NCBI GenBank assembly: GCA_965207455.1
Contig: CBDBMJ010000003.1
Span: 192,001 to 256,000, forward strand
DNA from: Bdellovibrionota bacterium
Lineage (GTDB): Bacteria; Bdellovibrionota; UBA1018; CAIPTA01; JAALKR01
Direction of reading: 5' to 3'
Length of the DNA stretch: 64,000 nt
Each line of letters starts with the position of its first letter. Position 1 is the first letter of the stretch. The notes beneath the pieces were generated by a model. It saw only the letters and a program-made list of their open reading frames with translations, ran no database searches and was not told the origin of the DNA. A program made the position numbers and the translations under genes. Below are positions 10,593 through 63,142 of the stretch, piece after piece.

Positions 10593-10768
10593 AATAATCT
10601 CCTTATTATTATTTTTTTTTCTCTCAACTTTTATTAGGGACTATTTATACGAAGCGCTACAAGTTAAAAATACAAACAACCTCTGTGAAACCCTTACATT
10701 TTATATAATTATTTGCGCTGCATGGATTATAAAAAATACAATTGCGTACAGAGAGAAAACCCAGAAGC

Positions 10769-10819
10769 AAAAAAAAAGGCCCCAACCGCCCCAACTGTTA
10801 TTCAGTTTCGGTTGAGGCC
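10769..10819 (-). terminator. Rho-independent terminator of protease copy 2
   Basis: A9-GGCCCCAACCG...CGGTTGAGGCC hairpin, giving a T-run on the minus strand. Confidence 0.6.
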
Positions 10820-10853
10820 CACAGGATGGACTCCTAGTTACTGTTCTTGGGAT

Positions 10854-12398
10854 CTACAATTCTCCCTCAAGAGATTTCAGTATATTAAGTCGACCACCTG
10901 TAATTGTTTTATCTTTCAAACTAGGAATGCTGTCTGTGAACTTTAACAAACGCTCCTTTATTTCTAGATAACTGGCATCGGGGTAATGCGACCAAAGCAG
11001 GGCCGCTGCACCTGCCACATGGGGCGTGGCCATAGATGTACCGCTAAGACGCTTATATGTTTTTCCAGGTATGGTGCTATAAACAGCCACGCCAGGCGCA
11101 GACAAGTGCACAGCTTTCTTCCCGTAGTCAGAAAAACGTGCCAGCTTGTCCCGACTATCAGTGGCTGCCACCGAGATAACATTATCTAAATCCAAACCAT
11201 GGTTGGCTGGCCATGACGACTTTTGATCATTGTTTCCACCAGCGTTACCTGCAGCTGCAATGAACAGCACTCCTTTGTCACGAGCATTTTTAATAGATGC
11301 TTCCAGTGCCATGTCCTTTGATCCTCCAGTGCCCCAAGAGTTGGAAAGAATCTTAGCTCCACGACTTACAGCATAGTTAATGGACTTAATTGCGCCGGCT
11401 GTGGATCCTCGATTTCCTTTTGTTATAAATTTCAAGGCCATAATGGACACTCGCTGTGCAACGCCTGAGACTCCTATTCCGTTCTCGCCCACAGCACCAA
11501 TAATTCCAGCGCAGTGACTGCCGTGCATGTGATCGTCGAAGGGAAGATTGTCATTATTTATGAAATCCCATCCCACTACGTCGCCGACAATATCGCTACC
11601 GTCTGAATTTACTCCCGTTTGCATAAAAGAACTCGCTTTAGGATTCCTCCACATATTGAAAGCAAGGTCGGGATGATTGTAGTCCACGCCCGTATCAATC
11701 ACAGCCACAATCACATCCTTGGATCCTTTGTTTATCTTCCATGCCTCGGGCGCTTGAATTCGAGCCATTCCGTACACGTTGCCCATGTTTGGATCTGCAT
11801 CAGCTTCTGGCTCCCCAGGTAGCGGTTCGATATCTGGACGTTTCGGTGGTTGTCCTGGCCCTCCGCCGCCACCATCTTCACAACCCGGAGGAAAGGGAAG
11901 ACCCGGAATCAGACAAGGTGGTTTTTTTCCTGGTGGTGGTTGTTCTCCATCCTCGCAACCCGGGGGAAAGGGAATACCTGGAACTGGACAAGCCGCATAA
12001 GGCTTACTTTCCTCCACCTCTATGGGAGATACACTCCATATATAGTTAGGCTGGGCATACTCCACAGCTGGATTTTTTTCCAGTATTTCAATGAGTTCTT
12101 CCACACCGAACTCTTCGTGATTAAACGTTATGTGCTCCATCACACCGTTCATATTTGTATCTTCAGAATTAGATATACGATCAACGAACAGCACACCCAA
12201 GCGCTCATACATATTATGTATGGATGTTAGAGAAAGAGTATTGCTTTCACGATACTTAACAATTACCTCTCCTTTTTCATATTCTCTATCGACAAAAGCC
12301 GACGAGTCGACTCCCCATAAAAACATAGCCATAATTATCCAGCCATATAGTGCACTTCTTTTTATAATTAACTTATTTGTATTAATTTTCTTTTTCAT
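10854..12398 (-). CDS. Secreted subtilisin-like S8 serine protease, copy 2
   Basis: Close paralogue of 9042-10592; VIDTG / HGSHCAG / GTSMATPHVAG. Confidence 0.92.
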   Translation of the reverse strand: MKKKINTNKLIIKRSALYGWIIMAMFLWGVDSSAFVDREYEKGEVIVKYRESNTLSLTSIHNMYERLGVLFVDRISNSEDTNMNGVMEHITFNHEEFGVEELIEILEKNPAVEYAQPNYIWSVSPIEVEESKPYAACPVPGIPFPPGCEDGEQPPPGKKPPCLIPGLPFPPGCEDGGGGGPGQPPKRPDIEPLPGEPEADADPNMGNVYGMARIQAPEAWKINKGSKDVIVAVIDTGVDYNHPDLAFNMWRNPKASSFMQTGVNSDGSDIVGDVVGWDFINNDNLPFDDHMHGSHCAGIIGAVGENGIGVSGVAQRVSIMALKFITKGNRGSTAGAIKSINYAVSRGAKILSNSWGTGGSKDMALEASIKNARDKGVLFIAAAGNAGGNNDQKSSWPANHGLDLDNVISVAATDSRDKLARFSDYGKKAVHLSAPGVAVYSTIPGKTYKRLSGTSMATPHVAGAAALLWSHYPDASYLEIKERLLKFTDSIPSLKDKTITGGRLNILKSLEGEL

Positions 12399-34751: not shown

Positions 34752-35666
34752 ATGAATAATACACCCATACTTTCTGTTGGTTCCCTCGCCTTTGATTCCA
34801 TTCAAGTTCCAGGGGATTCTGTAGAAGCGGCTCTTGGAGGATCAGCAAATTATTTTTCACTTTCGGCTAGTTTTTTTTCTCCTGTGCAAGTGGTGGGTGT
34901 TGTGGGAGAGGATTTTCCTCAAGAGCATTTACGTTATTTAGAGTCTCGAAATATCGACACGCAAGGAATTCAAGTTAAAGAAGGCAAGACCTTTCATTGG
35001 AAAGGAGAATATAAGGACGACTACAACAGTGCCATTACCCATGATACGGAACTCAATGTTTTTGGAGATTTTAATCCAGAGGTGCCTGCTCATTACGCCA
35101 AGGCCAAATATGTTTTCTTAGGTAATATTACTCCGAGTTTGCAATCTCGGGTGCTGGAGCAGGTGGAGAATCCCAGATTAATTGCACTAGACAGCATGAA
35201 CCTTTGGATCAATACCGCTAACGATGATTTGCAGGGCATACTAAAAAAAGTGAACTTACTTATCATCAATGATGGAGAGACTTGCTTGTTGGGTAAGAGT
35301 AAGAATGTTTTTACAGCGGCAGAAAAAATCATGGAGATGGGCCCTAAGTGCCTTGTTGTAAAGAGAGGTGAGTACGGTGCTTTCCTTCTTATGAACGGTG
35401 AGTATTTTGTAGCGCCGGCAGTACCTTTAAAGCAAATAAAAGACCCCACGGGGGCAGGCGATACTTTCGCAGGTGGTTTGTTAGGGTATTTAGCGTCTCA
35501 AGATTGCGACCTCAGCGACACAACTGTTCTCAAACAAGCTCTTCTATATGGAACCGTAATGGCCAGCTTTGTGGTACAGGATTTTAGTTTTCTTCGACTA
35601 AAGACGATCAGCTCAAAAGATATTCAAGCAGTCTATAAGAAAATTTCTTCCATGATTACTTTATGA
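34752..35666 (+). CDS. PfkB-family carbohydrate/nucleoside kinase
   Basis: VGSLAFDSI, LGGSANY, VKRGEYGA, DPTGAGDTFAGG. Confidence 0.9.
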   Translation: MNNTPILSVGSLAFDSIQVPGDSVEAALGGSANYFSLSASFFSPVQVVGVVGEDFPQEHLRYLESRNIDTQGIQVKEGKTFHWKGEYKDDYNSAITHDTELNVFGDFNPEVPAHYAKAKYVFLGNITPSLQSRVLEQVENPRLIALDSMNLWINTANDDLQGILKKVNLLIINDGETCLLGKSKNVFTAAEKIMEMGPKCLVVKRGEYGAFLLMNGEYFVAPAVPLKQIKDPTGAGDTFAGGLLGYLASQDCDLSDTTVLKQALLYGTVMASFVVQDFSFLRLKTISSKDIQAVYKKISSMITL

Positions 35667-36260
35667 CTCTTCTTGAAAGTGAATAACGGGCAGCGTTTTA
35701 TTGGGAAGAAATTTCTTCTCATTCATTCGAAACTCAATCTCATTATTTTTTTCAGCAATTGCCAGCGACGGAGCCTTTTTATTTTTTTGAGTCATGGCCC
35801 TTCGAGAAATCCATTGTGAGTATAGTACAGGCTTAAATGTGCTGTCTTTTTTATACTCCAAGATAGTCCAGTAGAAATCTTGGTATTGGGAAGTCCTACC
35901 TACGGCATGTGTCCAGCCCTTGAGTTCCACAAAAATTCTTCCTTTAATCCGTATTATTTTTGGCTTTACCCAGCTTCCATACTGTAGAACATTGTCAACG
36001 AACGGCTCCAGCTTTATTTTCGCTGCCCATTTAGAGGGAACAAAATAAAGTTGCATGCCATTGCTTGTTTCTCTCAATTCAATAAATTTTTTACCAACTA
36101 GGGGGACTTTATTAATTCGATGGCTTGTATTTTTCCCTTCAACGTCTGTCGTTGAGAAAGAAAAAATTAGTAGCATAAGGCAGTATTTTATATGGATTCT
36201 GCTTTTTTGGATATTTTTTCGTGCTTGCATATTTTCTCCTATTATTTTTTCCTTTGACAT
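35661..36260 (-). CDS. Hypothetical exported protein
   Basis: Hydrophobic signal-like segment YCLMLLIFSFSTT; start overlaps the stop of the upstream 708-aa gene. Confidence 0.65.
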   Translation of the reverse strand: MSKEKIIGENMQARKNIQKSRIHIKYCLMLLIFSFSTTDVEGKNTSHRINKVPLVGKKFIELRETSNGMQLYFVPSKWAAKIKLEPFVDNVLQYGSWVKPKIIRIKGRIFVELKGWTHAVGRTSQYQDFYWTILEYKKDSTFKPVLYSQWISRRAMTQKNKKAPSLAIAEKNNEIEFRMNEKKFLPNKTLPVIHFQEES

Positions 36261-38368
36261 TCCGCTCTCTCTTCCGCAGTCCGCGGTACTGGGCGAAAGA
36301 AAGAAACCGCTGGTTTGCTCTCTGCTATTTCAATATCACCTATATGTGTTACGGAATATTTTTCTGGTTTAGAATAACAAGCAAATCCTGGTTTTGAATC
36401 ACCATGACAAAAGAAAAAATTAAAGTCTTCTGCTAGTTTTTCTCCCTTACTTTTATAGGGGTACTTCTCCTTAAAATTCTTTGGATCACAGTAAGCTTCT
36501 CTAGATAGTTTTACGGCTAAATCCCATCGCTTTGGAGATTCTTTCTTAGGACAAAGGGTGCTACTTAAATTACCATGGTCTTTTACTTGAGGATTCCATA
36601 CGGAAAATTGATATCTTTTGGAAAGCACTCTTTCCTCTGGGGTCATATTTTCCACCCGTTCGCTTTCTCCTTTCTTTCTAGCAAAATTCCCTTTATATAT
36701 TTGTTCATAATTTCCCGGTTCTTTCCGTTTCCTAACATTATTTCTAAATACTTTATTATTCTCAAACCTTGTACGATCAGCAATGGTTCGAAGAGAGTAA
36801 ATATAATGGCCATTGGACTCACTATCACCTTCTGTTTCCACACTTCGAACCTCGCTATATATTGTTCTAGCCATGGCATCAATTGTACGCAAATCTCGGA
36901 AAGTCATTTTTTCACCAAGCCTGCATGTTAATTCAGATTCAGCAAGTTTGCTATGAATCTTATCTTTTTTCTTATCCCAATCAGCATAGACATGCCTGTC
37001 ATAAGAACTCATATTATGATTACCAATTCCATCCTTAAATTTAATACAAGCACCTGTATTATCTTTTAGAAATTCTTCGTCTTGTTCCTTCTCAGCTTGG
37101 ATCAAAGCTTGTGTTGCTTGAGCAACTCCATTATTTGACGATTTTTGTGAACATCCATATACCTCAATATAATGGAGAATTTGATCAGCCGTCAGTTTCG
37201 TGCTGAAACTATTATTCCTGGCTTGTATATTAAAATCTCCAAATTCTCTTAATTGTGCTAACTGTGCTAACTCGGACGAAGTAACTTTTACATTAAATTT
37301 TTTCAATATAGCGCAATATATGGGATTCTTTCCTTCTTCACAAGATATACCTCCTGGACTAAGTTGGGCTGCTTGTTTTTTTGTCGGTTTTTTTGCTGCT
37401 GATTTTGCTTTTAATTGCTCTAGTTCTACTGCTTGTTTTGCCGCTTGTTTCGCTGCTTGTTTTTCTTGTTTTGCTGCTTGTTCTACTGCTTGCCTTGCCT
37501 GTTTTGCTTCCTCTGACTTCAATTGTGCTAGTTTTACTGCTTCTTCCGCCAATAGCCTTTCTTCTTCTTTCTCTCTTAAATCAGCCTCTGCTTGTGCTAA
37601 TTCTGCCTCTAATTGCGCCTGTTTTGCTGCCTCTTCCGCTGCTTCTTTTGCGCTTGATCTTCTTGCTTGGCTAAACGGATCGTATTCCATGCTTTTTTGC
37701 TTTTCTTTCATTTCTGACGTCAATCGTTCTACAGTTCTTTCTATTTTATCTAATTCCAAAGATTTCTGTATGTTAATGTTCCCTAAGCTGAAATTTCCTG
37801 TCCTTTTTTTCCAGGGAGATGCCCATCCCTTTTCAAAAACGATTGTTTTTTCCTCTTCATTCCATGGCTTAAATGTCAATACTCTGTTGGTATCTCCAGA
37901 CCTGCCTAGTGAACGTGTGCCTTCAGAAATATAGTAAGGGATAGGGTTTCCGCCCTTCACTGTTGAACGTTTTAATCCTACGATACGAAGATTTTTCTTC
38001 TTGAGCTCTACCCAACCTCGCCTCTTATTTCCCCCATGCTTCATAAAAGTGGCATAAATAAAATTACGACCACGAAATCTCCGTACCACTATCTTTTGCT
38101 CTCCCCATTCATCGACAGCAATATAGCCTTCGGAAAGCTTCTCGCTAGGCTTGCAAGCAGGGCCTCCTTGAGTTGAATCGCTACACGGTTTCTTCACACA
38201 AGCTTCCAGCTCTTTTGCCGTTAATTTGGGGGAACATTGAGGGTAGTAAACAGGATTACCCACCATACTGTAACTCACATGATCAATTAGCAGGGTAGTC
38301 TCTGCTACCGTGTTAATGGTAAATAAACAAAGAGTTACAGACAAACAGGAAATAAAAACTCTCTTCAT
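36242..38368 (-). CDS. Secreted modular protein: Cys-rich N-domain, coiled coil, C-terminal SleB/Hydrolase_2-like cell-wall hydrolase
   Basis: Signal peptide; Ala/Glu/Lys/Gln-rich coiled coil; C-terminal AMARTIYSEVRS...TIADR...VLSKRYQFSVWN resembles Hydrolase_2 motifs. Confidence 0.7.
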   Translation of the reverse strand: MKRVFISCLSVTLCLFTINTVAETTLLIDHVSYSMVGNPVYYPQCSPKLTAKELEACVKKPCSDSTQGGPACKPSEKLSEGYIAVDEWGEQKIVVRRFRGRNFIYATFMKHGGNKRRGWVELKKKNLRIVGLKRSTVKGGNPIPYYISEGTRSLGRSGDTNRVLTFKPWNEEEKTIVFEKGWASPWKKRTGNFSLGNINIQKSLELDKIERTVERLTSEMKEKQKSMEYDPFSQARRSSAKEAAEEAAKQAQLEAELAQAEADLREKEEERLLAEEAVKLAQLKSEEAKQARQAVEQAAKQEKQAAKQAAKQAVELEQLKAKSAAKKPTKKQAAQLSPGGISCEEGKNPIYCAILKKFNVKVTSSELAQLAQLREFGDFNIQARNNSFSTKLTADQILHYIEVYGCSQKSSNNGVAQATQALIQAEKEQDEEFLKDNTGACIKFKDGIGNHNMSSYDRHVYADWDKKKDKIHSKLAESELTCRLGEKMTFRDLRTIDAMARTIYSEVRSVETEGDSESNGHYIYSLRTIADRTRFENNKVFRNNVRKRKEPGNYEQIYKGNFARKKGESERVENMTPEERVLSKRYQFSVWNPQVKDHGNLSSTLCPKKESPKRWDLAVKLSREAYCDPKNFKEKYPYKSKGEKLAEDFNFFFCHGDSKPGFACYSKPEKYSVTHIGDIEIAESKPAVSFFRPVPRTAEERAECQRKK

Positions 38369-38464
38369 ATTAATAAATTGTACGCTTACCCCTTAGATAA
38401 AACAACGGGAAGATAATACAAAGGTCTGTTTTTTTGTAACAGGTATTTTTTTTCAAAGTTGATG

Positions 38465-39837
38465 CTATTTATTTTTATCCTCGTCTTTAATGATTATATA
38501 TCCTCTCTGATCTAGTTCCCTATCTGTACCTTTCAAAACCTCCCGAGCATTCAAAGATTTTTCCAAGGCAAGCATTGCTTCCATAGTTGTTCTAAATACA
38601 ACCAACAGTTCTCGCAAGCGGCGGGTATTCATTTTCCCTGCCTGCATGAATGAGTATACCTGTTCTTGCCTCATTATATCCTTCTCCAACATCCATATAA
38701 ATTCTAGCCTTATTCTTTCCCACATTATGCCTTTCTGTTGGGTCTGCGGGAACAAAATTCCCAATTGGAAATTTTACATTTGCTGGAAGCGGACCCCTGC
38801 CTCCCGGCTTCCATGGATCAACTTTTGCTTTCTTTACCGGAACCCTGTTTGTAGCCTCAAAAATTTCAAATGTACTGTCCGGAAAATAAATGGTTAATTT
38901 ACCAACATTAACCAATTCATTCCTATCATCATAAAGTTCACTTCTTTTTTCACCGGTCCTATCAAAAACAGCAATTACTTTTGGATCTCTTTTACTCGCT
39001 TTTTCTAGCGCAACAAGCGGAACACTAAGATCTATCCCTCCCGTTGGAGAGGGCTGTCTTTGACATCCGTTTACCTCAATATAATGGAGAATTTGATCAA
39101 CCGTCAGTTCTGCACTAATAATGCTATTCTTATTTTGCATATCAAAATCCATCAGTTTGCTAAGTGCCGGTATTTCAGCAATAGTCACTATTAGCTTAAG
39201 TTTTTCTTGCTCCAATTCCTCCTGTTCTAATTTCTTTTGTTTCATTTTCTTTAGGTTCTCAACTATCCTGTCTTTTTCCAATATGGCGCAGTATATGGGA
39301 TTCTTTCCTCCCTCACAGAATATGCTTTTTGGACTCAACGGAATTTCTTGTTTTGCTGGTAGCTTTAACTCTTTCTTACTTGTCTTCTTTTTGGGCTGTC
39401 TCCAAGGCTGACTTTTCACCAGTTCCTTTTCCAGTTGTACTGTAATTGTTTCCATTTCTTTTAATTCCAAAGATTTCTGATCGGTGATTTTTTTGTGCGT
39501 GTGGTTTCTTAACCTTTGTTCCCAAGGAGAACGATTAACTTTTTCAAAAACAATTGGTCTTTTTCCCTTATTCCATGGTTCAATCTTTAATATTTTCTTC
39601 TCTCCAGCCCCGCCTAATGGAAGCGTATTTACGGAAATATTGGAAACAATATAGTTTTTTTTTGCTGTTGGATTTTTCACTCCTATTAGACGAAGAGTTT
39701 TCTTCTTGACCTCCACCCAGCCTTTTTTCTTCTCTATGCCTCCTGTATCAGAAAAACCGGCATGAATAAATATTCTACCATCATACAATTTTCTCACTTC
39801 AAACCCCGGCGCTCCCTTTTCTTGAATAATAATATTA
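38465..39837 (-). pseudogene. 3' part of an IS-disrupted paralogue of the 708-aa gene, with Tlde1/L,D-transpeptidase-like C-terminus
   Basis: Shares GWVE.KKK.LR..G.K, CE.GKNPIYCAIL and LT.DQILHYIEV.GC with 36242-38368. C-terminus has GPLP and GILIHAGR..RTVGCI. A one-base frameshift near 38594 separates a tail ending at 38465. Confidence 0.75.
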
Positions 39838-39845
39838 CCTTCAGG

Positions 39846-41051
39846 GTAACTAGTGGTCTAACCACTTAATTTTTTCACTTTTCTTGGAAGCGCAGTGCCG
39901 TGGCTTGTCGCATTTTTTGAGCAATCATTAAGACATGAATCCAGTAGAACTGAGTGATAGTGACTTACTCGAAATAAATAATGTTATAAAAAAAAGCGAA
40001 AATAACAGAATAGTTGTAAGGGCCATTGCCCTAAAAATGAAATATCTAAACCATACAAATATGGGTGCGGCAGAGGTTCTGAATATAACCCCTAGGACAG
40101 TGATTAATATTTGTAGCTACTATAGTAGCGGAAGGAATAGAATCTGCTTTAAACGATGACCCAAGACCAGGGAGGCCAGTAGAAATAGATGATAGAATAA
40201 AGTCTAAAATTGTTGCAATAGTCTGCAGTGACCCACCTGAAGCTTTTGATCGCTGGACATTGGAACTCATACAAGAGCAAGTAATAAAAGATGATATCGC
40301 TGAAAAAATAAGCAAAGAAAAAATCAGAATAATGCTCCAAGAGCATGATTTAAAACCTTGGAGATATGATATGTGGTGTGTGCCCAAGTTAGATAAAGAG
40401 TTTATCAATAGAATGGAAGATATATTAGATATCTATGAGATGCCTGTAGACGATAATGATCCTATAGTGTGCATTGATGAGAAATCGATCCAGTTACTTG
40501 ATAATAAGCGAGAGGAAAGTTGTACAAAAGAAGGGTCAATTAGAAAAATTGATCATGAATACAAGAGAAATGGAGCAGCAAATATATTTATGGCGGTAGA
40601 ACCCAAGAAGGGTATTTTTCATGCCAAGGTTACCGATAATAGGACGGGAAAAGATTTCGCTAAATATCTTTCTCAAATAGAAAGGAAGTATTCAAATTCT
40701 AAAAAAATCATTTTAGTAATGGATAATTTGAATACTCACAAAGAAAAATCATTACTCGATTTCTATGGAACGGATAAGGGGAAAAAGCTCTGGAAAAGAT
40801 TTGAAGTGCACTACACGCCAAAGCACGCCAGTTGGTTAAATCAAGCTGAGATCGCAATAGGTATGTACTCACGGCAGTGTCTGGGAAAAAGAAGAATTGG
40901 ATCTATCGAAGACCTGAGAAAAAAGACAAATGGTTGGGTCAGTGCAATTAATTCTAAAGAAGTAATAATTAAATGGAAATTTAACAAGGTCGAAGCTAGG
41001 GAAAAATTCAAATATAAAGTGAAAAAATTAAGTGGTTAGACCACTAGTTAC
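39846..41051 (+). mobile_element. IS630-family insertion sequence, 1206 bp, 36-bp perfect TIRs
   Basis: TIR GTAACTAGTGGTCTAACCACTTAATTTTTTCACTTT at 39846-39881, exact reverse complement at 41016-41051; flanked by CCTTCAGG at 39838-39845 and 41052-41059. Confidence 0.92.
39935..41039 (+). pseudogene. IS630 transposase with a frameshift near 40123
   Basis: HTH ORF 39935-40159; a second frame continues EGIESALNDDPRPGRP...RWTL into DDE motifs CIDEK, VMDNLNTH, HYTPKHASWLNQAE. Confidence 0.88.
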
Positions 41052-41311
41052 CCTTCAGGAAGCTTCTCCCCAGCCTTACAGTTGCCGACATGTGGGTCTC
41101 CAAAAGCACCATCAAGCTGCTGTTCACATGGCCTCCCAAGACAGTCAGCCAATGCTCCTTCCTTTAAGTCAGGCGAACACTTGGGATAATAAGTAGTCTC
41201 ACCTACCACACCGTAGCTCATATAATCAAATAGACCAGCAATAGCTCTTGGATTAGCAAATAAAGCAAGAATTATAAATAAACGAATATATAAAAAACCT
41301 AGATCAATCAC
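41052..41311 (-). pseudogene. 5' part of the IS-disrupted paralogue
   Basis: Signal peptide plus SY..VG...YYP.CSP.L....L..C...PC...CK..EKL.EG, matching the 708-aa N-terminus. Removing the IS and one TSD copy gives in-frame KLPEGNIIIQE. Confidence 0.85.
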
Positions 41312-42798
41312 TGTGCACTTTTCTTTTTAATTTGTTTGCCGCTTGCTGGTGTCGAGGATCTCTTAACCCTTAACCACCCTGTTTTCCTCTGACATCTGGG
41401 ATTGAGATAAGAGTAGCTATCTTTTATTACCTTGTCGGGATACTTTAGAATTTCACTCTTTCTGCTTTTCTCTGTAAGGCCCTTCATAAGCTTCTTCTTA
41501 CTTCCAAATGAGAGATCACTCTCATGTATAAATTTCTTAAACTTCTCAAGCGTTTTGTAATTTTTTATTCCCCTTACTATTTTTTGGTACTCTCCTATTT
41601 CCTTAGCACGTCTTTCTAACGTTTTTTTATTCTTATTTTCTATCCTCTTCTCCACGAGAACCTTAATCTCATCGATAAGCGTGTTCAAAGAGTCAACACC
41701 TTTTTTTAATTTACCACAATAATTATGCGCAAACGAAAATAAGCTTACACCAGCATTATGTGCCCATGTGGCCAATAAAATTGGGAACTTCAATTCGACT
41801 TCAATTTTGTTTGAGCCCCTACCTATGGAGTATGTTAAGCGCTGATTCTCTGGCTCAAGCCACTCTACTATTTCCCTAGCTGTTTTTCCAGTATCACCTT
41901 TTTTTCTCGTCAATTTCTTAAAATTATTTTGGCAATTACTTAAAAGTTTATTTGCTTCTGCAAGATTTTCCTTAAATTGAAGGGTGCTGTATAGCATACA
42001 CAAGTGGGGGTTTTCCAAAAACTGGCACCTGCGATATATGTAGATCACATCTTCAATATCTTTTCTTGACGTTGCACCAACAAATTTGGGAATCCTATCT
42101 GGAAAATTCTCATATCCATGAGATTTTCGAATCTTCTCTCTTGTACTTTTACATTGCTCAGATTTAAATTGCTTACTGAAAGCACTGTTCTTTTTAAAAT
42201 AATTATGTGTTTGCCGCACTGAATCGCCAGTGAGCTGCCCCAAGCAAGTAGCACCCCAATCGCTTTGCGCGTTTAGTTTAAGTTTAGATTCATGAATAAG
42301 TAAAGGCAGCATAGAAAAGTAATCAATACCCACACATTCTCCCACATCCCTTAAAGCTTCCTCAATACTTGCAACATAATTTTTATTAATGCAAAATGCT
42401 CCTCTTTTCATACTAAGGAGCCTTTTATTTTTCCAACTCACCTCTTGCCTTCTCAATTCCTCCTTGTATATTTTCCCATCGGTTCCTCTTCTCTCAACGA
42501 TTTCACCTGAGTCTATGCAGTAAGCATAAAACTTCCCTTTAATACCGACCTTCATAGCTGGCAATAAACAGCTGTAATCCTTACACCGTTTATCATCCCA
42601 GCGAGCAGAATTTTCATCCCAGTGGGCAGAACTTTCATCCCAGCGTTGACTATATTTTTCTATAATATCCTGCTTTTCTTCACATTCGCCAACATTTAAT
42701 CTGCACACAGCCAAGCATTCGCTAGGAACAAGCACAGGCAAGCAGAATAATATCAATGTAAAGAAGAGCTTTATTCTGTTCAGATACGGAGAAATCAT
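41308..42798 (-). CDS. Secreted SLT/lysozyme-like lytic transglycosylase-domain protein, paralogue A
   Basis: Signal peptide; LLIHESKLKLNAQSDWGATCLGQLT and LATWAHNAG correspond to SLT motifs ES, GLxQ and AYNAG. Confidence 0.7.
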   Translation of the reverse strand: MISPYLNRIKLFFTLILFCLPVLVPSECLAVCRLNVGECEEKQDIIEKYSQRWDESSAHWDENSARWDDKRCKDYSCLLPAMKVGIKGKFYAYCIDSGEIVERRGTDGKIYKEELRRQEVSWKNKRLLSMKRGAFCINKNYVASIEEALRDVGECVGIDYFSMLPLLIHESKLKLNAQSDWGATCLGQLTGDSVRQTHNYFKKNSAFSKQFKSEQCKSTREKIRKSHGYENFPDRIPKFVGATSRKDIEDVIYIYRRCQFLENPHLCMLYSTLQFKENLAEANKLLSNCQNNFKKLTRKKGDTGKTAREIVEWLEPENQRLTYSIGRGSNKIEVELKFPILLATWAHNAGVSLFSFAHNYCGKLKKGVDSLNTLIDEIKVLVEKRIENKNKKTLERRAKEIGEYQKIVRGIKNYKTLEKFKKFIHESDLSFGSKKKLMKGLTEKSRKSEILKYPDKVIKDSYSYLNPRCQRKTGWLRVKRSSTPASGKQIKKKSAQ

Positions 42799-42844
42799 TT
42801 TTCAAAAACCTCTAAAATTCAAACATAGTGTTTGGTAAAATAAA

Positions 42845-44434
42845 TTAATTGCCACGAGAACCGCCCTTGGCATTGCCTCCAGCACTGCCCCCTGAGGGGT
42901 TAAAACTAAGCCAGCCTATTTTTTCTTGGCATGATTGGGATTGTTTGTCAGCACGCACTGAATCCACATTGCCATAAATGTAATTATCAGGCTTGAGATA
43001 TTGATAACCATCCTCTATCGTACTTTCAATATAGCCTAAAATTTCTCTCGTTCTATTTATTTTTCCTTTCACAACCTTCTGAACTCCAGCATAAGCTTTT
43101 TTATTCAAGCTTTTTATGTGATTCATAAATGCTTCAAGTGTTTTGTATTTTTTCAGAATACCTAGCAATTCACTACTCTCGCCATGGGTTTTCACAATAT
43201 ACTCCTCGGTTGCGCTTCTATCATCCTTTTTTCTTTTTTTCTCTGCAATATCTCGTACTTCATTCTGCACATCATTCTTCACTTTCTTACCGCGCCTCAG
43301 TGCTCGTACTATTCTGTTGCAGTAGCTATCCACATAGCCAAATAATTCTCCGCCAACATTGTGTGCCCATGTGCCCAATAAAGTTTGTGCCTTAAGCTCA
43401 ACATTCGTTTTTTTATTTAAGGAGTATGTAAATTTCTGATCCTCTGGCTTAAGCCAATCTGCTATTTCCTTCGCTTTTTTTCCGCGAAACCCGTCAATCT
43501 TTTTTTGGCATTTCTTTAAATGAGCGGCTGCCCTGTCGGAATTCTTCTTAAAATAGAGCGTTGAATACAGCAGGCACAAATAAGGGTTATCTATAAACGC
43601 ACATCTAAATCTTGGTTCATCTGTATTGAATTTATGTATTTGATCATTGTCACTCCAATATGTGGGGAAATGTTCGTTTGGAAGAAATGGAAAATTTGCA
43701 TATTCCTCATTTTTTCGAATTTTATCCCTTGTATTTTTACATTCCGAATTCGTACTAAACCTCTGTATAAAATCAGTAGATTTTCTATCTGGAACCTTTC
43801 CTCTCTTGTTTTCCACAGGAGTTCTCTCTCCAAAATATTTTTTATTCACATCAGCTATTGCAACACCAGTGAGTTGCCCTAGGCAAGAGGCTCGAGCACC
43901 GCTTTGTGCATTCAGACCAATTCTAGACTCATGGATGAGCAATGGCAATATGGAAAAAGGCTCAATGCCCACGCACTTGCCCACTTCTTTTAAGGCATCC
44001 GCAATAACTGCAACATGCTTTTTATCAACACAAGGCTTACTCCTTCTTCTCATTCTGTTAGTCTCTTGGCGCCATTTGCCGGATTTATTTTTTTTACAAT
44101 ACGCATACCCACTACCTCTCGTGCTATCCTGCCATCTATTCCTTGGTGCTGATGCAAGGGCAGCCTCCATGGCTGGCAGCAAACAACCATAGTTTTCACA
44201 TTTTTTATTATCCCAACCAGGAGATAATTCATTCACTCTTTCCTGATGTTCGATTACAAGCTTATACCCTGCATGTTCATATATTCTTTCCTTACCCTTA
44301 TATTCCTTACACTTTTCCCGTATTGTACAAACACCCGATCCTTCAGCATGAGTAAACACTGATGCGAGCAAATAAATCAGCACTGCGCTCAACATAAATA
44401 AGAGATTTTTTTTATGTATGTGCTGGGAAAACAT
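42845..44434 (-). CDS. Secreted SLT/lysozyme-like lytic transglycosylase-domain protein, paralogue B
   Basis: Signal peptide; LLIHESRIGLNAQSGARASCLGQLT and GTWAHNVG; Cys pattern collinear with 41308-42798. Confidence 0.7.
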   Translation of the reverse strand: MFSQHIHKKNLLFMLSAVLIYLLASVFTHAEGSGVCTIREKCKEYKGKERIYEHAGYKLVIEHQERVNELSPGWDNKKCENYGCLLPAMEAALASAPRNRWQDSTRGSGYAYCKKNKSGKWRQETNRMRRRSKPCVDKKHVAVIADALKEVGKCVGIEPFSILPLLIHESRIGLNAQSGARASCLGQLTGVAIADVNKKYFGERTPVENKRGKVPDRKSTDFIQRFSTNSECKNTRDKIRKNEEYANFPFLPNEHFPTYWSDNDQIHKFNTDEPRFRCAFIDNPYLCLLYSTLYFKKNSDRAAAHLKKCQKKIDGFRGKKAKEIADWLKPEDQKFTYSLNKKTNVELKAQTLLGTWAHNVGGELFGYVDSYCNRIVRALRRGKKVKNDVQNEVRDIAEKKRKKDDRSATEEYIVKTHGESSELLGILKKYKTLEAFMNHIKSLNKKAYAGVQKVVKGKINRTREILGYIESTIEDGYQYLKPDNYIYGNVDSVRADKQSQSCQEKIGWLSFNPSGGSAGGNAKGGSRGN

Positions 44435-44437
44435 TTT

Positions 44438-45241
44438 TTAAACGCCCCCGAACTTCAAGCATAGTATCTGACGAACATAATACATGTCCTCGTAAGAATT
44501 TGGAGCACGCTCTGTCCATGGGTACTCCTCTAGTGAGGATTCATACTTTGGATCAAAATTCAAAAGGTAAGCACTTGGATTAAGGCAGTACTTTTTCTTA
44601 CTCCATTGAGAAAAGCCCATCGCCTTGAAAGCACGATCATAACTAGAAAATAAATATATTTTCATTTCAACTTCTTTCTCTAATTTTGCTGATTTTATCT
44701 TTCCGTAGTATTTCTCTTTTGCACGAAGGCCCAGTATTTCTCCCTGAATTTCGGAATGAAAATTAGTTATCATTTCTTTTATTTTTTTCTCGCCCGTCTC
44801 GTCACATGGAGCTTGAAATATCTTCTGTGCTATTTTTTTTGTTACAGGCAAATTTATTTTACCCACAATAGCTTCCACTTCCTTTTGTCTTTTCCGAGCT
44901 ATTTTTGCTTTTTCTTGCTTTTGCCTTCTTTGGTAAAACTTGGATTTCTTTGAGGACGTTTTTTCGGAGTTTTCTAGCTCACAAAATATGTTTTTATATA
45001 TCTTCTTTAGCTTTTTTGTGGGTTGACTCCCTTGCTCAGCAAGAGATAGCTGGGATGTGGAAAAAAAAGAGCAAAGCAGAAGTATCCATATGCACCCTTT
45101 CCAAGCAATAAAAAAGTGCCTAAAAATACACGGTAAATACTTATATTGTTGAAGTTGATTGAAAACTTTATTCCTAGCCATTCTTTTCATTATATACGGA
45201 AAATAACAAAGAAAGAAAAAATTCTCAACCGCTTTAACCAA
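44438..45241 (-). CDS. Hypothetical exported Lys-rich protein (start uncertain)
   Basis: Signal-like IWILLLCSFFSTSQLSLA; ends 3 bp before the next gene. Confidence 0.6.
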   Translation of the reverse strand: MVKAVENFFFLCYFPYIMKRMARNKVFNQLQQYKYLPCIFRHFFIAWKGCIWILLLCSFFSTSQLSLAEQGSQPTKKLKKIYKNIFCELENSEKTSSKKSKFYQRRQKQEKAKIARKRQKEVEAIVGKINLPVTKKIAQKIFQAPCDETGEKKIKEMITNFHSEIQGEILGLRAKEKYYGKIKSAKLEKEVEMKIYLFSSYDRAFKAMGFSQWSKKKYCLNPSAYLLNFDPKYESSLEEYPWTERAPNSYEDMYYVRQILCLKFGGV

Positions 45242-45285
45242 AGGCCCAAAGGCTGCTATGGAACCGCAAACAGGTAAAAAAGACC

Positions 45286-46026
45286 TTACTTGGGAAGCTT
45301 CTTTCTCTCTAACAGGCTCGCAACCAGAATGGATCCTTCATATAGAAGGTACAGGGGAACCATCATCAGGACCATGGAAAGCACATCGGGTGGAGCGCAT
45401 AGTGCGGACATAACGGCAATAGCAATAACTGCGGTCCGTCGGTTTTTTCGGAGAGTTTTTACATCCAGTACACCCACACAAACTAAAAATACCAGAACTA
45501 CGGGAAACTCAAAGGACAAGCCAAAGAGAAGTAGCAGTCGAAAAACGAGAGAAAAATATTCCTTCACGGTAATAAGAGGTATGTTTTGAGGTTGGCCAAA
45601 TTCTATGAAAAAAGGAAAGCCGCTGGGGAAAATAAAGTAATACGCAAAACTAGCACCAAGAAAGAAAAAGCAGGTGCCAAGAACAACAAAAGGAATGGCC
45701 ATACGCTTTTCCTGCTTGTGCATAGCGGGGGAAATAAAGGCCCATACTTGGTAAAAAATAACGGGCATGGCTAGGAGAAATCCCCCGATCATGGAAACAC
45801 GAAGGCCATTGAGAAAGCTTTCAAATAGCCCGGTAAAGTATAATTGCTGCTTGTCTGGAGGAAGCACCGCAAAGAGGGGTTGGGTAAAAAACGCCGTCAG
45901 CGGTTTATGGAATAAATAACACAGGGAGGAGGTGGCGATAAATGCCCACAGGCACCATAGCAGGCGTTTTCGTAGCTCTTCAAAGTGATCGACAAACGGT
46001 TTTTCTGAGTCTTCTGGCTTGGTCAT
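45286..46026 (-). CDS. tatC: Twin-arginine translocase subunit TatC
   Basis: DHFEELRKRL, YQVWAFISPAM, FGLSFEFP, PPDVLS, LYLLYE. Confidence 0.93.
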   Translation of the reverse strand: MTKPEDSEKPFVDHFEELRKRLLWCLWAFIATSSLCYLFHKPLTAFFTQPLFAVLPPDKQQLYFTGLFESFLNGLRVSMIGGFLLAMPVIFYQVWAFISPAMHKQEKRMAIPFVVLGTCFFFLGASFAYYFIFPSGFPFFIEFGQPQNIPLITVKEYFSLVFRLLLLFGLSFEFPVVLVFLVCVGVLDVKTLRKNRRTAVIAIAVMSALCAPPDVLSMVLMMVPLYLLYEGSILVASLLERKKLPK

Positions 46027-57384: not shown

Positions 57385-58845
57385 ATGCAACGCATAGCCA
57401 TATTTCTTGTAGTATCCTTTATTTTACCTCTAAAAGCAAGGAGCACCCCCATCAAGCTCGATGCCCTAAAAGTCCTATTTGAAAAACAAATTAGTAAGCT
57501 ACCCAAGCAAATCAGCCTTTCCATGCTTGTGGAAACCGCAGGAGATAGAAAGGTCATCTACTCCCATAAAAAGAACACAGCATTGGTACCTGCCTCCTCC
57601 ATGAAACTACTCACCTCCAGCGCAGCACTTGAAATCATGGGACCTGCCCACACGCTCAAAACCCGGGTTTTGCTAGAGGGCACTCGTAAAGGAGATACCC
57701 TAGATGGACACCTAGTACTCGTGGGCAATGGAGATCCATACTTAGTCAGTGAACGCCTTTGGCTCTTAGCGAGAGCTATTGCCCGCACGGGTATAAAAAA
57801 AATTACCGGCGGTATTAAAGTAAATAATGAATATTTTCCTGAAAACGACACATTACTAAACTTAGCCGGAAAGGGCGAACCCTATGCTGCAAAGCTGGCT
57901 GCCACTAGCTTTAATTTTAATAGCTTGGAATTGCATGCCTCAGTTGGAAACAAAAAAGAAAAAGTAATCGTGCATTTAGGCCCGGTGGAACATGGCTATG
58001 GCAAAATCATCAATGATGTGAGACTAGTTCCCGGAAAAACGAAATCTGTCCGAGTGACATCAAAGGGACGAAAAAAAGGAATAGAAACATTTCGTCTATC
58101 GGGAAATTTGGGAAGAGAAGCCTCTCCCCTTGTGCTCTACTATCCAGTGGAAGATACATCAGCCTATATCAGCCATGTCTTAGCCGCTATGTTGAAAAAA
58201 GAAAGCATTGAAATAAAAATCCCTTATGCAGGAAACACTAATTTTGATTCTGGAAAGGAACTCACAAAAATTGAAAGTCCTCCTCTCACCACGCTCCTAC
58301 GCCTAATGAATACTTATAGTAATAACTTTATGGCAGAACAGTTCTTTTATATAATGGGTGCTATTAAGCACGGAGCACCAGCAACGAAAGAAAAATCCAA
58401 ACAAGTACTAGATGAGTCCTTAAAAAAAATACCCGAATGTAGAAAAGACACTATCTTTGCAGACAACGGCTCCGGGTTCAGTTGGAAAAGTCGGATAAGT
58501 GCTGCCTGCCTAGTGGGCAGCTTGCAAAAAAGCTACCGAAAGTTTCGTGGCTTTGCCGATTTAATTGGAAGCATGCCCATTGGTGCCAATACGGGCACCC
58601 TAAAAAAACGATTCCATGGCTTTGATTCTTCCTGGTTCCACCCAACAAAAGTGCGTGCAAAAACAGGAACACTTTGGAGTCAAGGTGCTGTTACCTCCAT
58701 CGTCGGATTTACTTCCTCCTACTCTGGCGAGCCTCTAGTATTCTCTTTACTACTAAACCATAAGGAATCGGGCAGTAAGCCCATTTTACCAATGCGAAAT
58801 TGGGAAGAGAAAATAATTAGTCTTTTACAAAAGGTGACTTTGTAA
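57385..58845 (+). CDS. dacB: D-Ala-D-Ala carboxypeptidase/endopeptidase (PBP4, S13)
   Basis: PASSMKL, GNGDP, SNN, NGSG, RAKTGTL. Confidence 0.9.
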   Translation: MQRIAIFLVVSFILPLKARSTPIKLDALKVLFEKQISKLPKQISLSMLVETAGDRKVIYSHKKNTALVPASSMKLLTSSAALEIMGPAHTLKTRVLLEGTRKGDTLDGHLVLVGNGDPYLVSERLWLLARAIARTGIKKITGGIKVNNEYFPENDTLLNLAGKGEPYAAKLAATSFNFNSLELHASVGNKKEKVIVHLGPVEHGYGKIINDVRLVPGKTKSVRVTSKGRKKGIETFRLSGNLGREASPLVLYYPVEDTSAYISHVLAAMLKKESIEIKIPYAGNTNFDSGKELTKIESPPLTTLLRLMNTYSNNFMAEQFFYIMGAIKHGAPATKEKSKQVLDESLKKIPECRKDTIFADNGSGFSWKSRISAACLVGSLQKSYRKFRGFADLIGSMPIGANTGTLKKRFHGFDSSWFHPTKVRAKTGTLWSQGAVTSIVGFTSSYSGEPLVFSLLLNHKESGSKPILPMRNWEEKIISLLQKVTL

Positions 58846-58866
58846 CTTTAGAAGGAGCAACACAGA

Positions 58867-60132
58867 ATGAATAAAAAAATATTATTTTTATGTTCTTGGA
58901 TGTGGATGCTAGCAACCCCTTCACAAACATGGGCCGATACAAGGACTCCATTCCAAAGTCATAAAATCTTAAAGGACTCTTTCCAGTACGGCTCCATAAA
59001 AACAGAGAAAGCCCTGCACTCTAGAGTAAGATTCTGGATAAACATATTCACCCAACTCCATAACTGGGAAATCCTACTCCACGATTCCCTCTTCCCCAAC
59101 ATCATATATGAATCGATTAATGTTAAGGATATTGAAGAAAATAAAAAAATCAGCAATAGAACAAAAAGAAGACAAATCGCAAAAAAAATTAAAGATAGAA
59201 GGAAGTATTATTCTAAGCTTTTAACGGATTTATATTTCAAGCACTCCTCGGGCAATCCAGAAAAAGCAACCATGACGGAAGATGAGCTTCGCGTCTACGA
59301 ACAGTATACAAAAAGAAAACTCCACCATAGAGAAATCCTTGCTGCCTCTGAAAAAAAACGTTTTCGTACTCAGAGAGGACTAAAGGAAAATTTCATCCAA
59401 GGGATCTACGAGTCGGGCAGATATATGCCGAAAATCCAAAGAATTATGAGTCGCCATAATCTTCCTCCAGAAATCTCCTACCTACCCTTTTTAGAGTCAA
59501 GCTTTAATAATAACGCTCTATCAAGAGTAGGCGCCTCTGGAATCTGGCAATTCATGCCCAGTACTGGAAAATTATTTCTCCGCGTGGACAAGATAGTAGA
59601 TGAAAGAAACGACCCCCTAAAAGCAGCAGAAGCTGCTGCACTCCTTATCGCCTCCAATTATAAGGCACTCCAAGCCTGGCCTCTTGCCATCACAGCCTAT
59701 AATCACGGTAAATCTGGAATGTTAAGCGCTGTTAGAGCTACTAAAACAAGATCCCTAGCCTCCATTATTGAAAAATATAACGGTAAGCGCTTTCAATTTG
59801 CCTCTAAAAATTTCTTTAGTGCTTTTGTGGCTAGCCTCCATACCGCAAAAAATAGTACTTTTTATTTTGGAAAAATTGGTAGTGCAGAGGTAATAAACTT
59901 TGAAGAATTTATTATGCAAGATTATATGAGCCTCAAGACACTGGCTCATTTCACAGGCATTGAACCAGATGAACTCAAAAAATATAACCCTGCTCTTACG
60001 AAACCTGTTCAAAACTATAAAAAATATATACCCGTGGGCTATACTCTTCGAGTGCCTTTAGCTAATAAAAATGATTTTTTAGCACGCTATAAGGCAATTC
60101 CTCCTCAATATAAATTTTCTCGACAAAAATAA
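58867..60132 (+). CDS. MltD-like lytic transglycosylase
   Basis: LPFLESSF, GASGIWQFMPSTG, DERNDP, WPLAITAYNHG, C-terminal LysM-like LKKYNP. Confidence 0.88.
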   Translation: MNKKILFLCSWMWMLATPSQTWADTRTPFQSHKILKDSFQYGSIKTEKALHSRVRFWINIFTQLHNWEILLHDSLFPNIIYESINVKDIEENKKISNRTKRRQIAKKIKDRRKYYSKLLTDLYFKHSSGNPEKATMTEDELRVYEQYTKRKLHHREILAASEKKRFRTQRGLKENFIQGIYESGRYMPKIQRIMSRHNLPPEISYLPFLESSFNNNALSRVGASGIWQFMPSTGKLFLRVDKIVDERNDPLKAAEAAALLIASNYKALQAWPLAITAYNHGKSGMLSAVRATKTRSLASIIEKYNGKRFQFASKNFFSAFVASLHTAKNSTFYFGKIGSAEVINFEEFIMQDYMSLKTLAHFTGIEPDELKKYNPALTKPVQNYKKYIPVGYTLRVPLANKNDFLARYKAIPPQYKFSRQK

Positions 60133-60141
60133 GAATGTAAA

Positions 60142-60615
60142 TTAACGAAGGCCGCAAGAACTAAGATAGGCTTTCGTACTTTCATACCAAGGCAGAACCG
60201 GCGTATCGTTTTCCGTAGGATAACTATCCCTAACCATAGAAAAAACTTTAGACTCTTTACTCCCAATCATCGCTGTAGGGAAACGCTCCCTTTCCTGGAG
60301 CTCCTTATTCAATTTCACTATGGGACCCACCACATGCTGAACACCAGCAGCGTCCCAAAGGGAAAGATTAAGAACATTGATTGCCACCATCTCAAACGTG
60401 GCAAAAAAAACAATTTCCTGCATCTTAGTTTTCAACATTTCTAAATTCTTTTCTAGAACTGCACGAGTAAGTTCTCCCGTGAGTATAAACTCTTGCCCCA
60501 CCTCTAGACCCTGGTGATTTCTTATATCTTTTTGAGATATATCAATATCCTTATTTCCGTTCGTTTTCATAACTTTCATCTCATACTCCAGTCCACTGCC
60601 ACTATACTCTCCCAT
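60142..60615 (-). CDS. Hypothetical protein
   Basis: 157-aa ORF filling the gap; no family recognised. Confidence 0.6.
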   Translation of the reverse strand: MGEYSGSGLEYEMKVMKTNGNKDIDISQKDIRNHQGLEVGQEFILTGELTRAVLEKNLEMLKTKMQEIVFFATFEMVAINVLNLSLWDAAGVQHVVGPIVKLNKELQERERFPTAMIGSKESKVFSMVRDSYPTENDTPVLPWYESTKAYLSSCGLR

Positions 60616-60884
60616 GCAGTGCTCTCAAAATAAATAATATTTACCCAACTGTCAATGCCGCAATGCAAATAAAACAATAAATATTGGGTCTGCTAGGGAA
60701 AAGCATTCACCAACCCCCTGCAAACCCCTTCTCGCCTCTATGTGCTCCCAAAGCACTACCTAGCCGCATAATAACCCTTCCAGCCTCCAAAACTATGCTT
60801 ACGGGGCTCTCAAAAATAGAGAAAATCAATTAAATTCAGTAAAAACATATATTTACAAAAAAATCTCTTCAGCTAAAACAATGT

Positions 60885-60913
60885 TTGACTATTCTTGCTA
60901 TTGATAGTACAAT
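60885..60913 (+). promoter_or_regulatory. sigma70-type promoter of the Sel1 array
   Basis: TTGACT-N17-TACAAT. Confidence 0.6.
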
Positions 60914-60958
60914 GCGTTATTACTGAGAAATAAAAACTATATATAAGGAGAAAAGAAA

Positions 60959-62443
60959 ATGAAGAAACAAAAAAATGGAATGAAGTTTTACTGGTTTGCG
61001 TTTCTTATTTTTATTGCTGTACCCAACATAAGTCACAGTCAGGATGCTGACTACCAACAAACCTTAGAAAAAGCGCGTTTAGGCGATGCGAGAGCTCAAT
61101 TTAATTTAGGTCTTGCGTATGACCGAGGAGAAGGCGTTGCCGAAAATGCTGAGAAAGCAGTTTATTGGTATAGACGAGCAGCAGAGCAAGGATATGCGAA
61201 TGCCCAATCTAATTTAGGTGTATATGTAAATGCTGGAAAAGGCGTTACTCAAGATTATAAGGAAGCAGTTCGTTGGTTTAGAAAAGCAGCAGAGCAAGAA
61301 AATGCACATGCTCAATTTGCTTTAGGTGCTCTGTATTATGCCGAGGAGCGGGCGTTACTCAAAATGATGAGAAAGCAGTTTATTGGTCCAGAAAAGCAGC
61401 AGACCAAGGGTATGCGGATGCTCAATATAATTTAGGTATGTTGTATAGAAATGCTGGAAAAGGTGTTGCTCAAGATTATAAGGAAGCAATTTATTGGTGG
61501 AGAAAAGCAGCAAATCAAGGAGATGCACATGCTCAATTTGCTTTAGGTGCTCTGTATTACCGAGGAGAAGGTGTTTCTAAGGATATTAAGACGGCATTGC
61601 ATTGGCTTGAAAAAGCAGCAAAGCAAGGAAATACAAATGCCCAATCTAATTTAGGTTATAAGTATTATGTAAATGGAAAAGGAGTTACTCAAGATGTTGA
61701 TCAATGCAATTTATTGGTACAGAAAGCAGCAGATCAAGGAGATGCAGATGCTCAAATTTAGTTTAGGTATTATCTTATACTGAAATGGAAACAGGCAGAT
61801 TATTGCCAAAAATGCTGAGAAAGCAAGTTTATTGGTATAGACGAGCAGCAGAGCAAGGATATGCGAATGCCCAATCTAATTTAGGTTATATGTATGATGC
61901 TGGAAAAGGCGTTACTCAAGATTATAAGGAAGCAGTTCGTTGGTTTAGAAAAGCAGTAGAGCAAGGATATGCGAATGCCCAATCTAATTTAGGTTATATG
62001 TATTATGCTGGAAAAGGCGATTTACTCAAGATTATGAGGATGCGGTTTATTGGTATAGAAAAGCAGCAGAGCAAGGATATGCGAATGCCCAATCTAATTT
62101 AGGTTATATGTATGATGCTGGAAAAGGCGTTACTCAAGATTATAAGGAAGCAGTTCGTTGGTTTAGAAAAGCAGTAGATCAAGGATATGCAGATGCTCAA
62201 AATAATTTAGGTCATATGTATTATGAAGGGAAAGGTGTTGCCCAAGATTATAAGAAAGCAGTTCGTTGGTTTAAAGAAGCAGCAAATCAAGGATATGCAC
62301 ATGCTCAATCTCATTTAGGTGCTATGTATTACCGAGGAGAAGGTGTTTCTAAGGATATTAAGACGGCATTGCATTGGCTTGAAAAAGCAGCAAAGCAAGG
62401 AAATACAAATGCCCAAGATCTTTTACAAGAAATCAAAGAATGA
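60959..62443 (+). pseudogene. Secreted Sel1-like-repeat protein (about 12 repeats) broken by several frameshifts, real or assembly artefact
   Basis: Signal peptide, then ~108-nt units A..W..KAA.QG.A.AQ..LG..Y..G.GV..D spread over ORF fragments 60959-61435, 61438-61761, 61785-62102 and 62108-62443. Confidence 0.8.
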
Positions 62444-62515
62444 AGATTCCACTGAGTCTGCAAGTTGAGTGTGTGAGGGTTGAACAATAAAGACTATATA
62501 TAAGGAGAAAAGAAA

Positions 62516-63142
62516 ATGAAGAAACAAAAAAATGGAATGAAGTTTTACTGGTTTGCGTTTCTTATTTTTATTGCTGTACCCAACATAAGTCACAGTCAGG
62601 ATGCTGACTATCATAAACAAGTAGTAAAAGGAGCATATGAAGTAAGCGCGAACGCGCAATCTAATTTGGCTGGTATGTACTCTTTTGGAGAAGTTGTTGT
62701 TAAAGATTTTGAACAAGCCAATACAAGTTGCGGTGCTGACTACCAACAGACCTTAGAAAAAGCGTATTTAAGCAATGGGAGAGCTCAAAATATAGGTCTT
62801 ACGCACGATAAAGAAAAATGCATTAGTCAAGATGCTAGCTACCGACTTACCTTAAAAAAAGCGCCTTCAGGCGATGCGATGGCTCAATTTAATTTAGCTC
62901 GAATGTATGATAAGGGAGAAATCGTAACTCAAGATTATGAGGATGCGGTTTATTGGTACAGAAAAGCAGCAGATCAAGGACATGCAAAAGCTCAAACTAA
63001 TTTAGGATCTATGTATGCTACTGGCACAGGTGTTTTTGAAGATAATCTACAGGCAACTTATTGGTACAGAAGAGCAGCAGCCCAAGGAAATTTATATGCT
63101 AAATTTAATTTAGGCCTTTATGACCCCGAGTATCGAAGATAG
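62516..63142 (+). CDS. Secreted Sel1-repeat protein
   Basis: First 32 aa identical to the 60959 gene; AQFNLARMYDKG, WYRKAADQGHAKAQTNLG. Confidence 0.85.
   Translation: MKKQKNGMKFYWFAFLIFIAVPNISHSQDADYHKQVVKGAYEVSANAQSNLAGMYSFGEVVVKDFEQANTSCGADYQQTLEKAYLSNGRAQNIGLTHDKEKCISQDASYRLTLKKAPSGDAMAQFNLARMYDKGEIVTQDYEDAVYWYRKAADQGHAKAQTNLGSMYATGTGVFEDNLQATYWYRRAAAQGNLYAKFNLGLYDPEYRR

Follow-up and report, generated by a model that had tools for sequence, protein, structure and literature searches.

A locus specific to one lineage groups putative exported lytic transglycosylases of two families common in Bdellovibrionota

Parallels to the locus reported here have been described in Bdellovibrio. According to PMC10127604, this organism secretes lytic transglycosylases (LTs) into its prey, and PMC4686830 describes a self-protection gene placed downstream of a wall enzyme, as in the Bd3459/Bd3460 pair of B. 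bacteriovorus. At the level of single enzymes, the relevant comparisons are the family-1 LTs (E. coli MltC, MltE and Slt70, P. aeruginosa MltF), the SleB/CwlJ proteins (Hydrolase_2) and Tlde1, for which PMC9638812 gives the motif HXX14-17-(S/T)HGCh. In its arrangement, the locus also recalls the polymorphic toxin loci of the Rhs, CDI and LXG types.

We analyzed a window of 64,000 nucleotides (G000:C3:192001-256000) from a 2.38 Mb genome, G000, that is 94.7% complete and the sole member of its genus. The named relatives fall within Bdellovibrionota, in agreement with the assumed affiliation, and by analogy with its phylum the organism is taken to be a predator. Six minus-strand genes (g1-g6, Table 1) sit between pfkB and tatC. 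The original prediction had described them as closely spaced, co-oriented genes for exported wall-active enzymes built from paralogous pairs. Order, strand and spacings (3, 46, -4, 96 and -19 bp from g1 through g6, the last becoming +11 with the start at 36230 of the public gene call) were as described, but the fourth gene is broken rather than intact. Both paralogous pairs are real, with 34% identity over 551 columns for g2/g3 and 33% over 410 columns for g4/g5. A hydropathy scan, used in place of a signal-peptide predictor, found a single hydrophobic N-terminal stretch in all six proteins, in line with the signal-like N-termini that had been expected. Lysine enrichment also extends to all six (11-15%, 90th-99th percentile of 1,602 ORFs), but cysteine enrichment is limited to four (88th-97th percentile), the g4 piece and g6 lying at the 44th and 21st percentiles. 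The locus is more AT-rich than its flanks as proposed (37.6% GC; median 40.7%), but 18% of 1,181 genome windows of equal size are lower still; such a mild deviation led us to reject a horizontal island on the grounds of GC content. No protein exceeded the curated cut-off in a Pfam scan or the cut-off in a PHROG scan. We propose that the locus groups predicted exported LTs in a cluster specific to this lineage, drawn from two families widespread in Bdellovibrionota and likely directed against prey, and we regard this proposal as evenly poised between right and wrong.

Table 1. Features of the g1-g6 locus, in window positions
Feature	Position	Strand	Description
g1	44438..45241	-	orphan, Cys/Lys-rich, predicted exported; 250 aa from ATG 45190
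g2	42845..44434	-	529-aa predicted SLT-like (family-1) lytic transglycosylase; Glu169, GQLT, HNxG
g3	41308..42798	-	496-aa g2 paralog (34%); Glu170
g4	38465..41311	-	pseudogene; about 544 codons (residues) on read-through with X at the breaks
IS630-type element	39846..41051	+ (opposite g4)	1,206 bp; DDE_3/HTH_32 transposase
g4 second break	38592..38596	-	frameshift, stop at 38592-38594 just past catalytic-like Cys (G-C-I)
g5	36242..38368	-	708 aa; predicted C-terminal SleB-fold lytic transglycosylase domain; Glu506
g6	35661..36260	-	189-199-aa predicted exported orphan; candidate g5 inhibitor by position

The two SLT-like transglycosylases of the original prediction were borne out, g2 by structural matches and g3 by paralogy. 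When a model of g2 (pLDDT 65, pTM 0.71) was compared with 48,161 chains using VIA-align, all of the top eight matches were family-1 LTs (Z 6.2-7.9), with MltC as the best (Z 7.9, rmsd 4.2, 173 aligned residues) and MltF, MltE and Slt70 also among them; every Z lies below the caution level of 8, and the weight comes from the agreement of all eight. A g2/g3 profile searched against solved structures gave weak matches (best E 0.007), of which 12 of 14 rows were named transglycosylases, and aligned with the ESrF..GLMQL and AYNAG stretches of solved LTs at E 0.007-0.7. Together with six weak relatives, g2 and g3 displayed HES, GQLT and H/YNxG motifs, corresponding to the E-S, G-x-x-Q-L and Y/H-N-x-G motifs of family-1 LTs, and the catalytic Glu (HES-169/170) was invariant in 9/9 aligned rows. 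By its model g2 is thus predicted to have the lysozyme-like SLT fold of MltC, MltE, Slt70 and MltF, and g3 is assigned the same fold through its identity to g2. In contrast to family-1 LTs, the two proteins are about 500 aa long with large Cys-rich insertions, share 13-16% identity with them and form a Bdellovibrionota family of their own below the Pfam SLT cut-off: against PF01464 (21.3 bits), g2 and g3 were unlisted and a third paralog located outside the window (G000:C3:423232-424674; L011:9233-10675) reached 14.3 bits.

The predicted SleB-like hydrolase corresponds to g5. This protein comprises a species-specific N-terminal region with an SH3-like lead only, a coiled linker and, according to a model, a C-terminal SleB-fold domain. 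The last 250 residues define a second phylum family whose named holders are Bdellovibrionota. A domain model built from 35 rows (pLDDT 79.5) matched two SleB structures best, 4fet (Z 7.0, rmsd 3.7, 122/122 residues aligned) and 4f55 (Z 6.6, rmsd 4.0, 121/128 residues aligned), with the third-best chain at a Z of only 3.0. The modelled SleB fold extends across the whole SleB catalytic domain, and the ARTIYxE and QFSxW motifs are shared. Glu506 was invariant in 35/35 aligned rows, and we take it to occupy the place of the single catalytic Glu that closes the first helix of SleB. Unlike SleB/CwlJ, the g5 domain is twice the size, follows a long species-specific region and belongs to a non-sporulating Gram-negative host; it also remains below the PF07486 cut-off, which the best family members (2/9) approached with E about 0.1. 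PDB sequence searches with the domain and with the 35-row profile gave no match, nor did a word-based search with the domain among shorter proteins. The Foldseek check that had been suggested returned nothing at E<=0.001 for the g2 or the g5 model. That all structural Z values are under 8, with Foldseek and Pfam empty, counts against the prey-directed reading. Since the title of a structure entry names SleB a lytic transglycosylase, g2, g3 and g5 are all predicted glycan cutters, and on the basis of the models and alignments each would use one Glu to cleave the MurNAc-GlcNAc bond. With g4 a pseudogene in this strain, the intact members are these three predicted glycan-cutting enzymes, and the peptide-stem enzyme that had also been expected is not among them.

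We wondered how far the two families extend beyond this genome. The SLT-like family was found at E<=1e-12 in 86 of 401 phylum genomes, seven of which had contributed to the model, and the SleB-like family in 49 of 401, at least five of them contributors. Within family f21, which includes a genome (G401) whose match coincides with a named record of Bdellovibrio sp. qaytius, 48 and 30 of the 53 sampled genomes were positive, respectively. Among the 99 genomes sampled from the class besides G000, 13 carry the SLT-like and four the SleB-like family, and both went undetected in G001 (88% complete), the single further genome of the host's family. Scattered, unlinked genes in relatives would have refuted the original prediction, and this is partly the case: the relatives searched carry the enzyme families, but scattered and never clustered. 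In the genomes searched they are adjacent nowhere else, the closest pair lying about 26 kb apart (G190), and none of the six genes stands beside tatC or pfkB in the five nearest relatives examined (5/5).

This distribution bears on whether the cluster serves the cell's own wall, in growth, division, squeezing or appendage assembly, with the clustering a by-product of duplication. Self-remodelling is among the roles considered for such genes in PMC2797640, which leaves prey and self both possible. In Bdellovibrio-like genomes the SleB-like gene is conserved and usually present once, with no partner gene beside it, a pattern that fits a self-wall role equally and so counts against use on prey, and the neighbours of the cluster include PBP, tatC and cyclophilin genes. 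However, both families are patchy within the class, seven ordinary SLT matches over the cut-off already exist in G000, and core wall machinery would hardly be expected to diverge so strongly, to occur in extra copies or to tolerate a pseudogene. We therefore consider self-wall remodelling rather unlikely. We favor use on prey on the following grounds: both families show a patchy distribution and duplicated members, the seven ordinary SLT genes can take care of housekeeping, no T6SS marker was found and, in the sources cited above, Bdellovibrio secretes LTs into prey and has a wall enzyme with a protecting gene downstream of it.

Exported genes are commonly duplicated throughout G000, which together with the failure to detect either family in G001 counts against the prey-directed reading. 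A crude heuristic applied to 2,015 ORFs counted 122 pairs of tandem paralogs, of which 65 have signal-like ends, and 12 further runs of at least four co-oriented signal-like ORFs, so the anatomy of the cluster alone is ordinary for this genome. Tandem pairs also arose independently elsewhere, as observed for the SleB-like family in Bdellovibrio sp. qaytius (L018:5422-7967) and for the SLT-like family at G398:C1:2763902-2766221.

Such background duplication also fits the notion that the locus forms no functional unit and that duplicated exported genes have merely piled up at a rearrangement breakpoint, where they drift or decay. In four of five relatives pfkB adjoins a recO-gmhB-galE block, and in G000 a stretch of 198 kb separates pfkB from recO; the cluster occupies one end of it, and close to its opposite end lies the third SLT-like paralog. 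g4 in addition carries two independent lesions. Drift is hard to reconcile with five of six frames being open at tight spacing, with the catalytic Glu kept in three proteins just 30-35% identical and with 99% conservation of g5 between this strain and a sister allele, and we judge this explanation highly improbable.

The broken gene g4 starts within g3, and its frame is interrupted after 87 codons by the IS630-type element. An assembly error as the cause of the second break, the frameshift, was considered and rejected, as a depth-21 contig of run X1, possibly the source data, spans it unchanged. The original prediction had seen a Tlde1/L,D-transpeptidase-like enzyme in g4. Indeed, the C-terminal domain contains an L,D-transpeptidase-like motif (H-x15-C, T-V-G-C) in which His and Cys are 16 apart as in Tlde1/YkuD (H-x12-T-V-G-C-I), and its GPLP and R-x-G-x-L-I-H stretches resemble Tlde1 by eye. 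Compared with the Tlde1 motif of PMC9638812, g4 retains the first His, the Thr and the Gly-Cys-Ile, and Val replaces the second His. A loose form of this pattern, composed after the sequence had been seen, occurred in 1 of 2,015 ORFs, namely g4 itself. PF10908 did not match g4, a PDB sequence search with the domain gave one chance hit only, and when it was scored against three of the phylum's Tlde1 domains, 445 of 2,000 shuffles did equally well. The proposed enzyme identity was not upheld beyond the motif: the score is no better than that of shuffles and the gene is a pseudogene here, leaving the Tlde1/YkuD-like domain putative and assigned by motif. In contrast to Tlde1, g4 has a signal-like N-terminus instead of T6SS/Rhs delivery, its gene is broken and significant sequence matches are missing. 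VipB, one T6SS marker, was unmatched in the 94.7% complete genome, so delivery by a T6SS is not indicated.

Residues 27-367 of g4 align with residues 27-427 of g5, and beyond them the g4 domain is unrelated to g5. The two proteins thus have about 340 N-terminal residues in common and differ in their C-terminal domains. The sole relative of the g4 piece among 1.84 billion representatives is the g5 allele, and its C-terminal part matched in 0 of 126 other class genomes. An intact g4 would place a Cys/His peptide-stem domain, so identified by its motif, on the N-terminal carrier of g5. The gene directly downstream of g4 is g5, leaving g4 with no immunity gene of its own.

The flanking genes g1 and g6, neither of which had a match in the 126 other class genomes, had been put forward as candidates for immunity. 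Nothing was found to support this for g1. For g6 the position argues in favor: when the neighbours of 34 other SleB-like genes were read by eye, one of them at a contig edge, three (L019, L021 and L022) shared a 4-bp overlap with a small exported gene. The remaining genes, mostly from Bdellovibrio-like genomes, had no small exported neighbour of such kind. The partner genes (L019:5164-7109, L021:4978-7096 and L022:4965-7096) encode 157-188 aa and belong to one unannotated family of 11 sequences that includes P0001-P0010, for which Pfam gave no match and a PDB search with the partner profile was empty. g6 resembles this family in position and size, but homology, suggested by eye, was not supported by hhalign (probability 0.1-0.2%) or an HMM (-0.9 bits). 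This lack of detectable homology, together with the finding that the nearest sequence relative of g5 (L022:236-1576) has no partner gene downstream, counts against the prey-directed reading. Language-model comparison of g6 gave nothing above the lead level of 0.9; the weaker leads included PliI (PF16743), which scored 0.79 with 143 of 256 features in common, and Pfam gave no match. Given its position, g6 is a candidate inhibitor of g5. As with Bd3459/Bd3460, a small exported gene comes after the gene of an exported wall enzyme in a predator-lineage genome; unlike that pair, g5 is a predicted LT and Bd3459 a DacB endopeptidase, and g6 is by Pfam no ankyrin protein.

Compared with a sister allele, g6 has 16 differences over 171 residues and g5 has 4 over 708, three of these within 25 residues of Glu506. 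One X1 contig with 80% likeness leaves the window at 38595, and the 30 letters seen there keep the g4 frame open and carry other substitutions, so that a divergent sister allele of the g4 3' end is likely present in run X1. X1 contigs split into two alleles in g6 and in the g4 tail, and their depth falls from 43 (window 44381-46000) to 25 (41025-44410) where g2 starts. This hints at strain differences along the locus, depth being a weak measure.

Together these data raise the idea of a polymorphic antagonism locus, in which a common N-terminal carrier presents interchangeable wall-attacking C-termini to competitors or kin and variable immunity genes follow. The carrier common to g4 and g5 has no relative outside the species among the 1.84 billion representatives, the exchanged C-terminal domain and the variable small gene downstream of g5 resemble Rhs, CDI and LXG loci, and both the unequal divergence of g6 and g5 and the open g4 allele of X1 would fit. 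Moreover, the true Tlde1 domains of the phylum, present in 3 of 401 genomes (L076-L078), form the C-terminal ends of Rhs-like genes, and each of these genes overlaps a small one downstream. Unlike those loci, however, ours offers no known delivery domain, T6SS, cassette array or downstream orphan toxin-immunity cassettes, the carrier is known with two C-termini only, g4 lacks an immunity gene and a recombination tract could explain the unequal divergence. A locus of this kind is in our view unlikely. A bolder form of it, a Sec-exported wall-attack system of an uncultured predator lineage in which SleB- and L,D-peptidase-type domains on a species-specific carrier vary between co-occurring strains and a new, fast-evolving family of PliI-like inhibitors of SleB-type LTs stands guard, we consider improbable.

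Returning to the prey-directed reading, the cluster likely arose by local duplication plus exchange of C-terminal domains. Judged by their N-termini, g2, g3 and g5 would be exported via Sec, and the enzymes of the cluster would likely open or soften the peptidoglycan of prey. By its position and by analogy with Bd3460 and Bd3459, g6 would act in the producer's periplasm as an inhibitor that binds g5, and thereby likely protect the producer; g4 is dead in this strain.

We found no paper on the locus or its families among the literature search results listed; supplements to published work may include Bdellovibrio members with expression data. What is new is the grouping of wall enzymes, confined to one species; the enzyme folds are known and the families widespread in the phylum. 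A one-species arrangement with a dead member makes the locus less of a system than first proposed. Of more lasting interest are both phylum-wide families, the carrier on which C-terminal domains have been exchanged and the small genes that partner SleB-like genes. The families, predicted to be LTs, are unannotated and invisible to Pfam, and their wide carriage in Bdellovibrio-like predators makes their role testable by knockout in cultured Bdellovibrio. Candidate protein inhibitors of this enzyme class in Gram-negative predators are encoded by the small genes that overlap a SleB-like gene in four genomes.

Several other gene groups were observed in this genome. Within the window, at 57385-63142, an ordinary SLT gene comes after a DacB-type (Peptidase_S13) gene and precedes a fragmented run of Sel1-repeat genes in which two N-termini are identical. 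Exported subtilases, 78% identical, stand in tandem at 9042-12398, next to a small GTPase (8372-9025) that by motif presumably resembles MglA. At G000:C1:596407-621592 there is an array of at least seven large paralogs whose N-termini were labelled pilin-like by eye.

The element inside g4 belongs to the IS630 family as judged by transposase domains (PF13358, E 7e-30; PF13565, E 5e-11), inverted repeats (39 nt, perfect) and a TA target, with CTAG at both ends in both element copies. Its transposase is itself frameshifted near 40132. X1 records stop 27 bases inside each element end, short of the 31 bases required by the contig bridging rule, and no joint skips the element. An 8-bp direct repeat lies outside it (39838-39845 and 41052-41059), and a GTAA...TTAC shell with this 8-bp target repeat surrounds the element (window 39838-41059). 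Such a shell is not known as a trait of IS630. Four other elements of the genome display the same pattern of ends and repeat, three of them with GTAACTTAGT ends, and presumably resemble IS66. The transposase of one such shell-type element is interrupted by a second, internally deleted IS630-type copy (G000:C1:1725402-1726077), and either cross-mobilisation or a collapsed nested insertion possibly accounts for the shell pattern.
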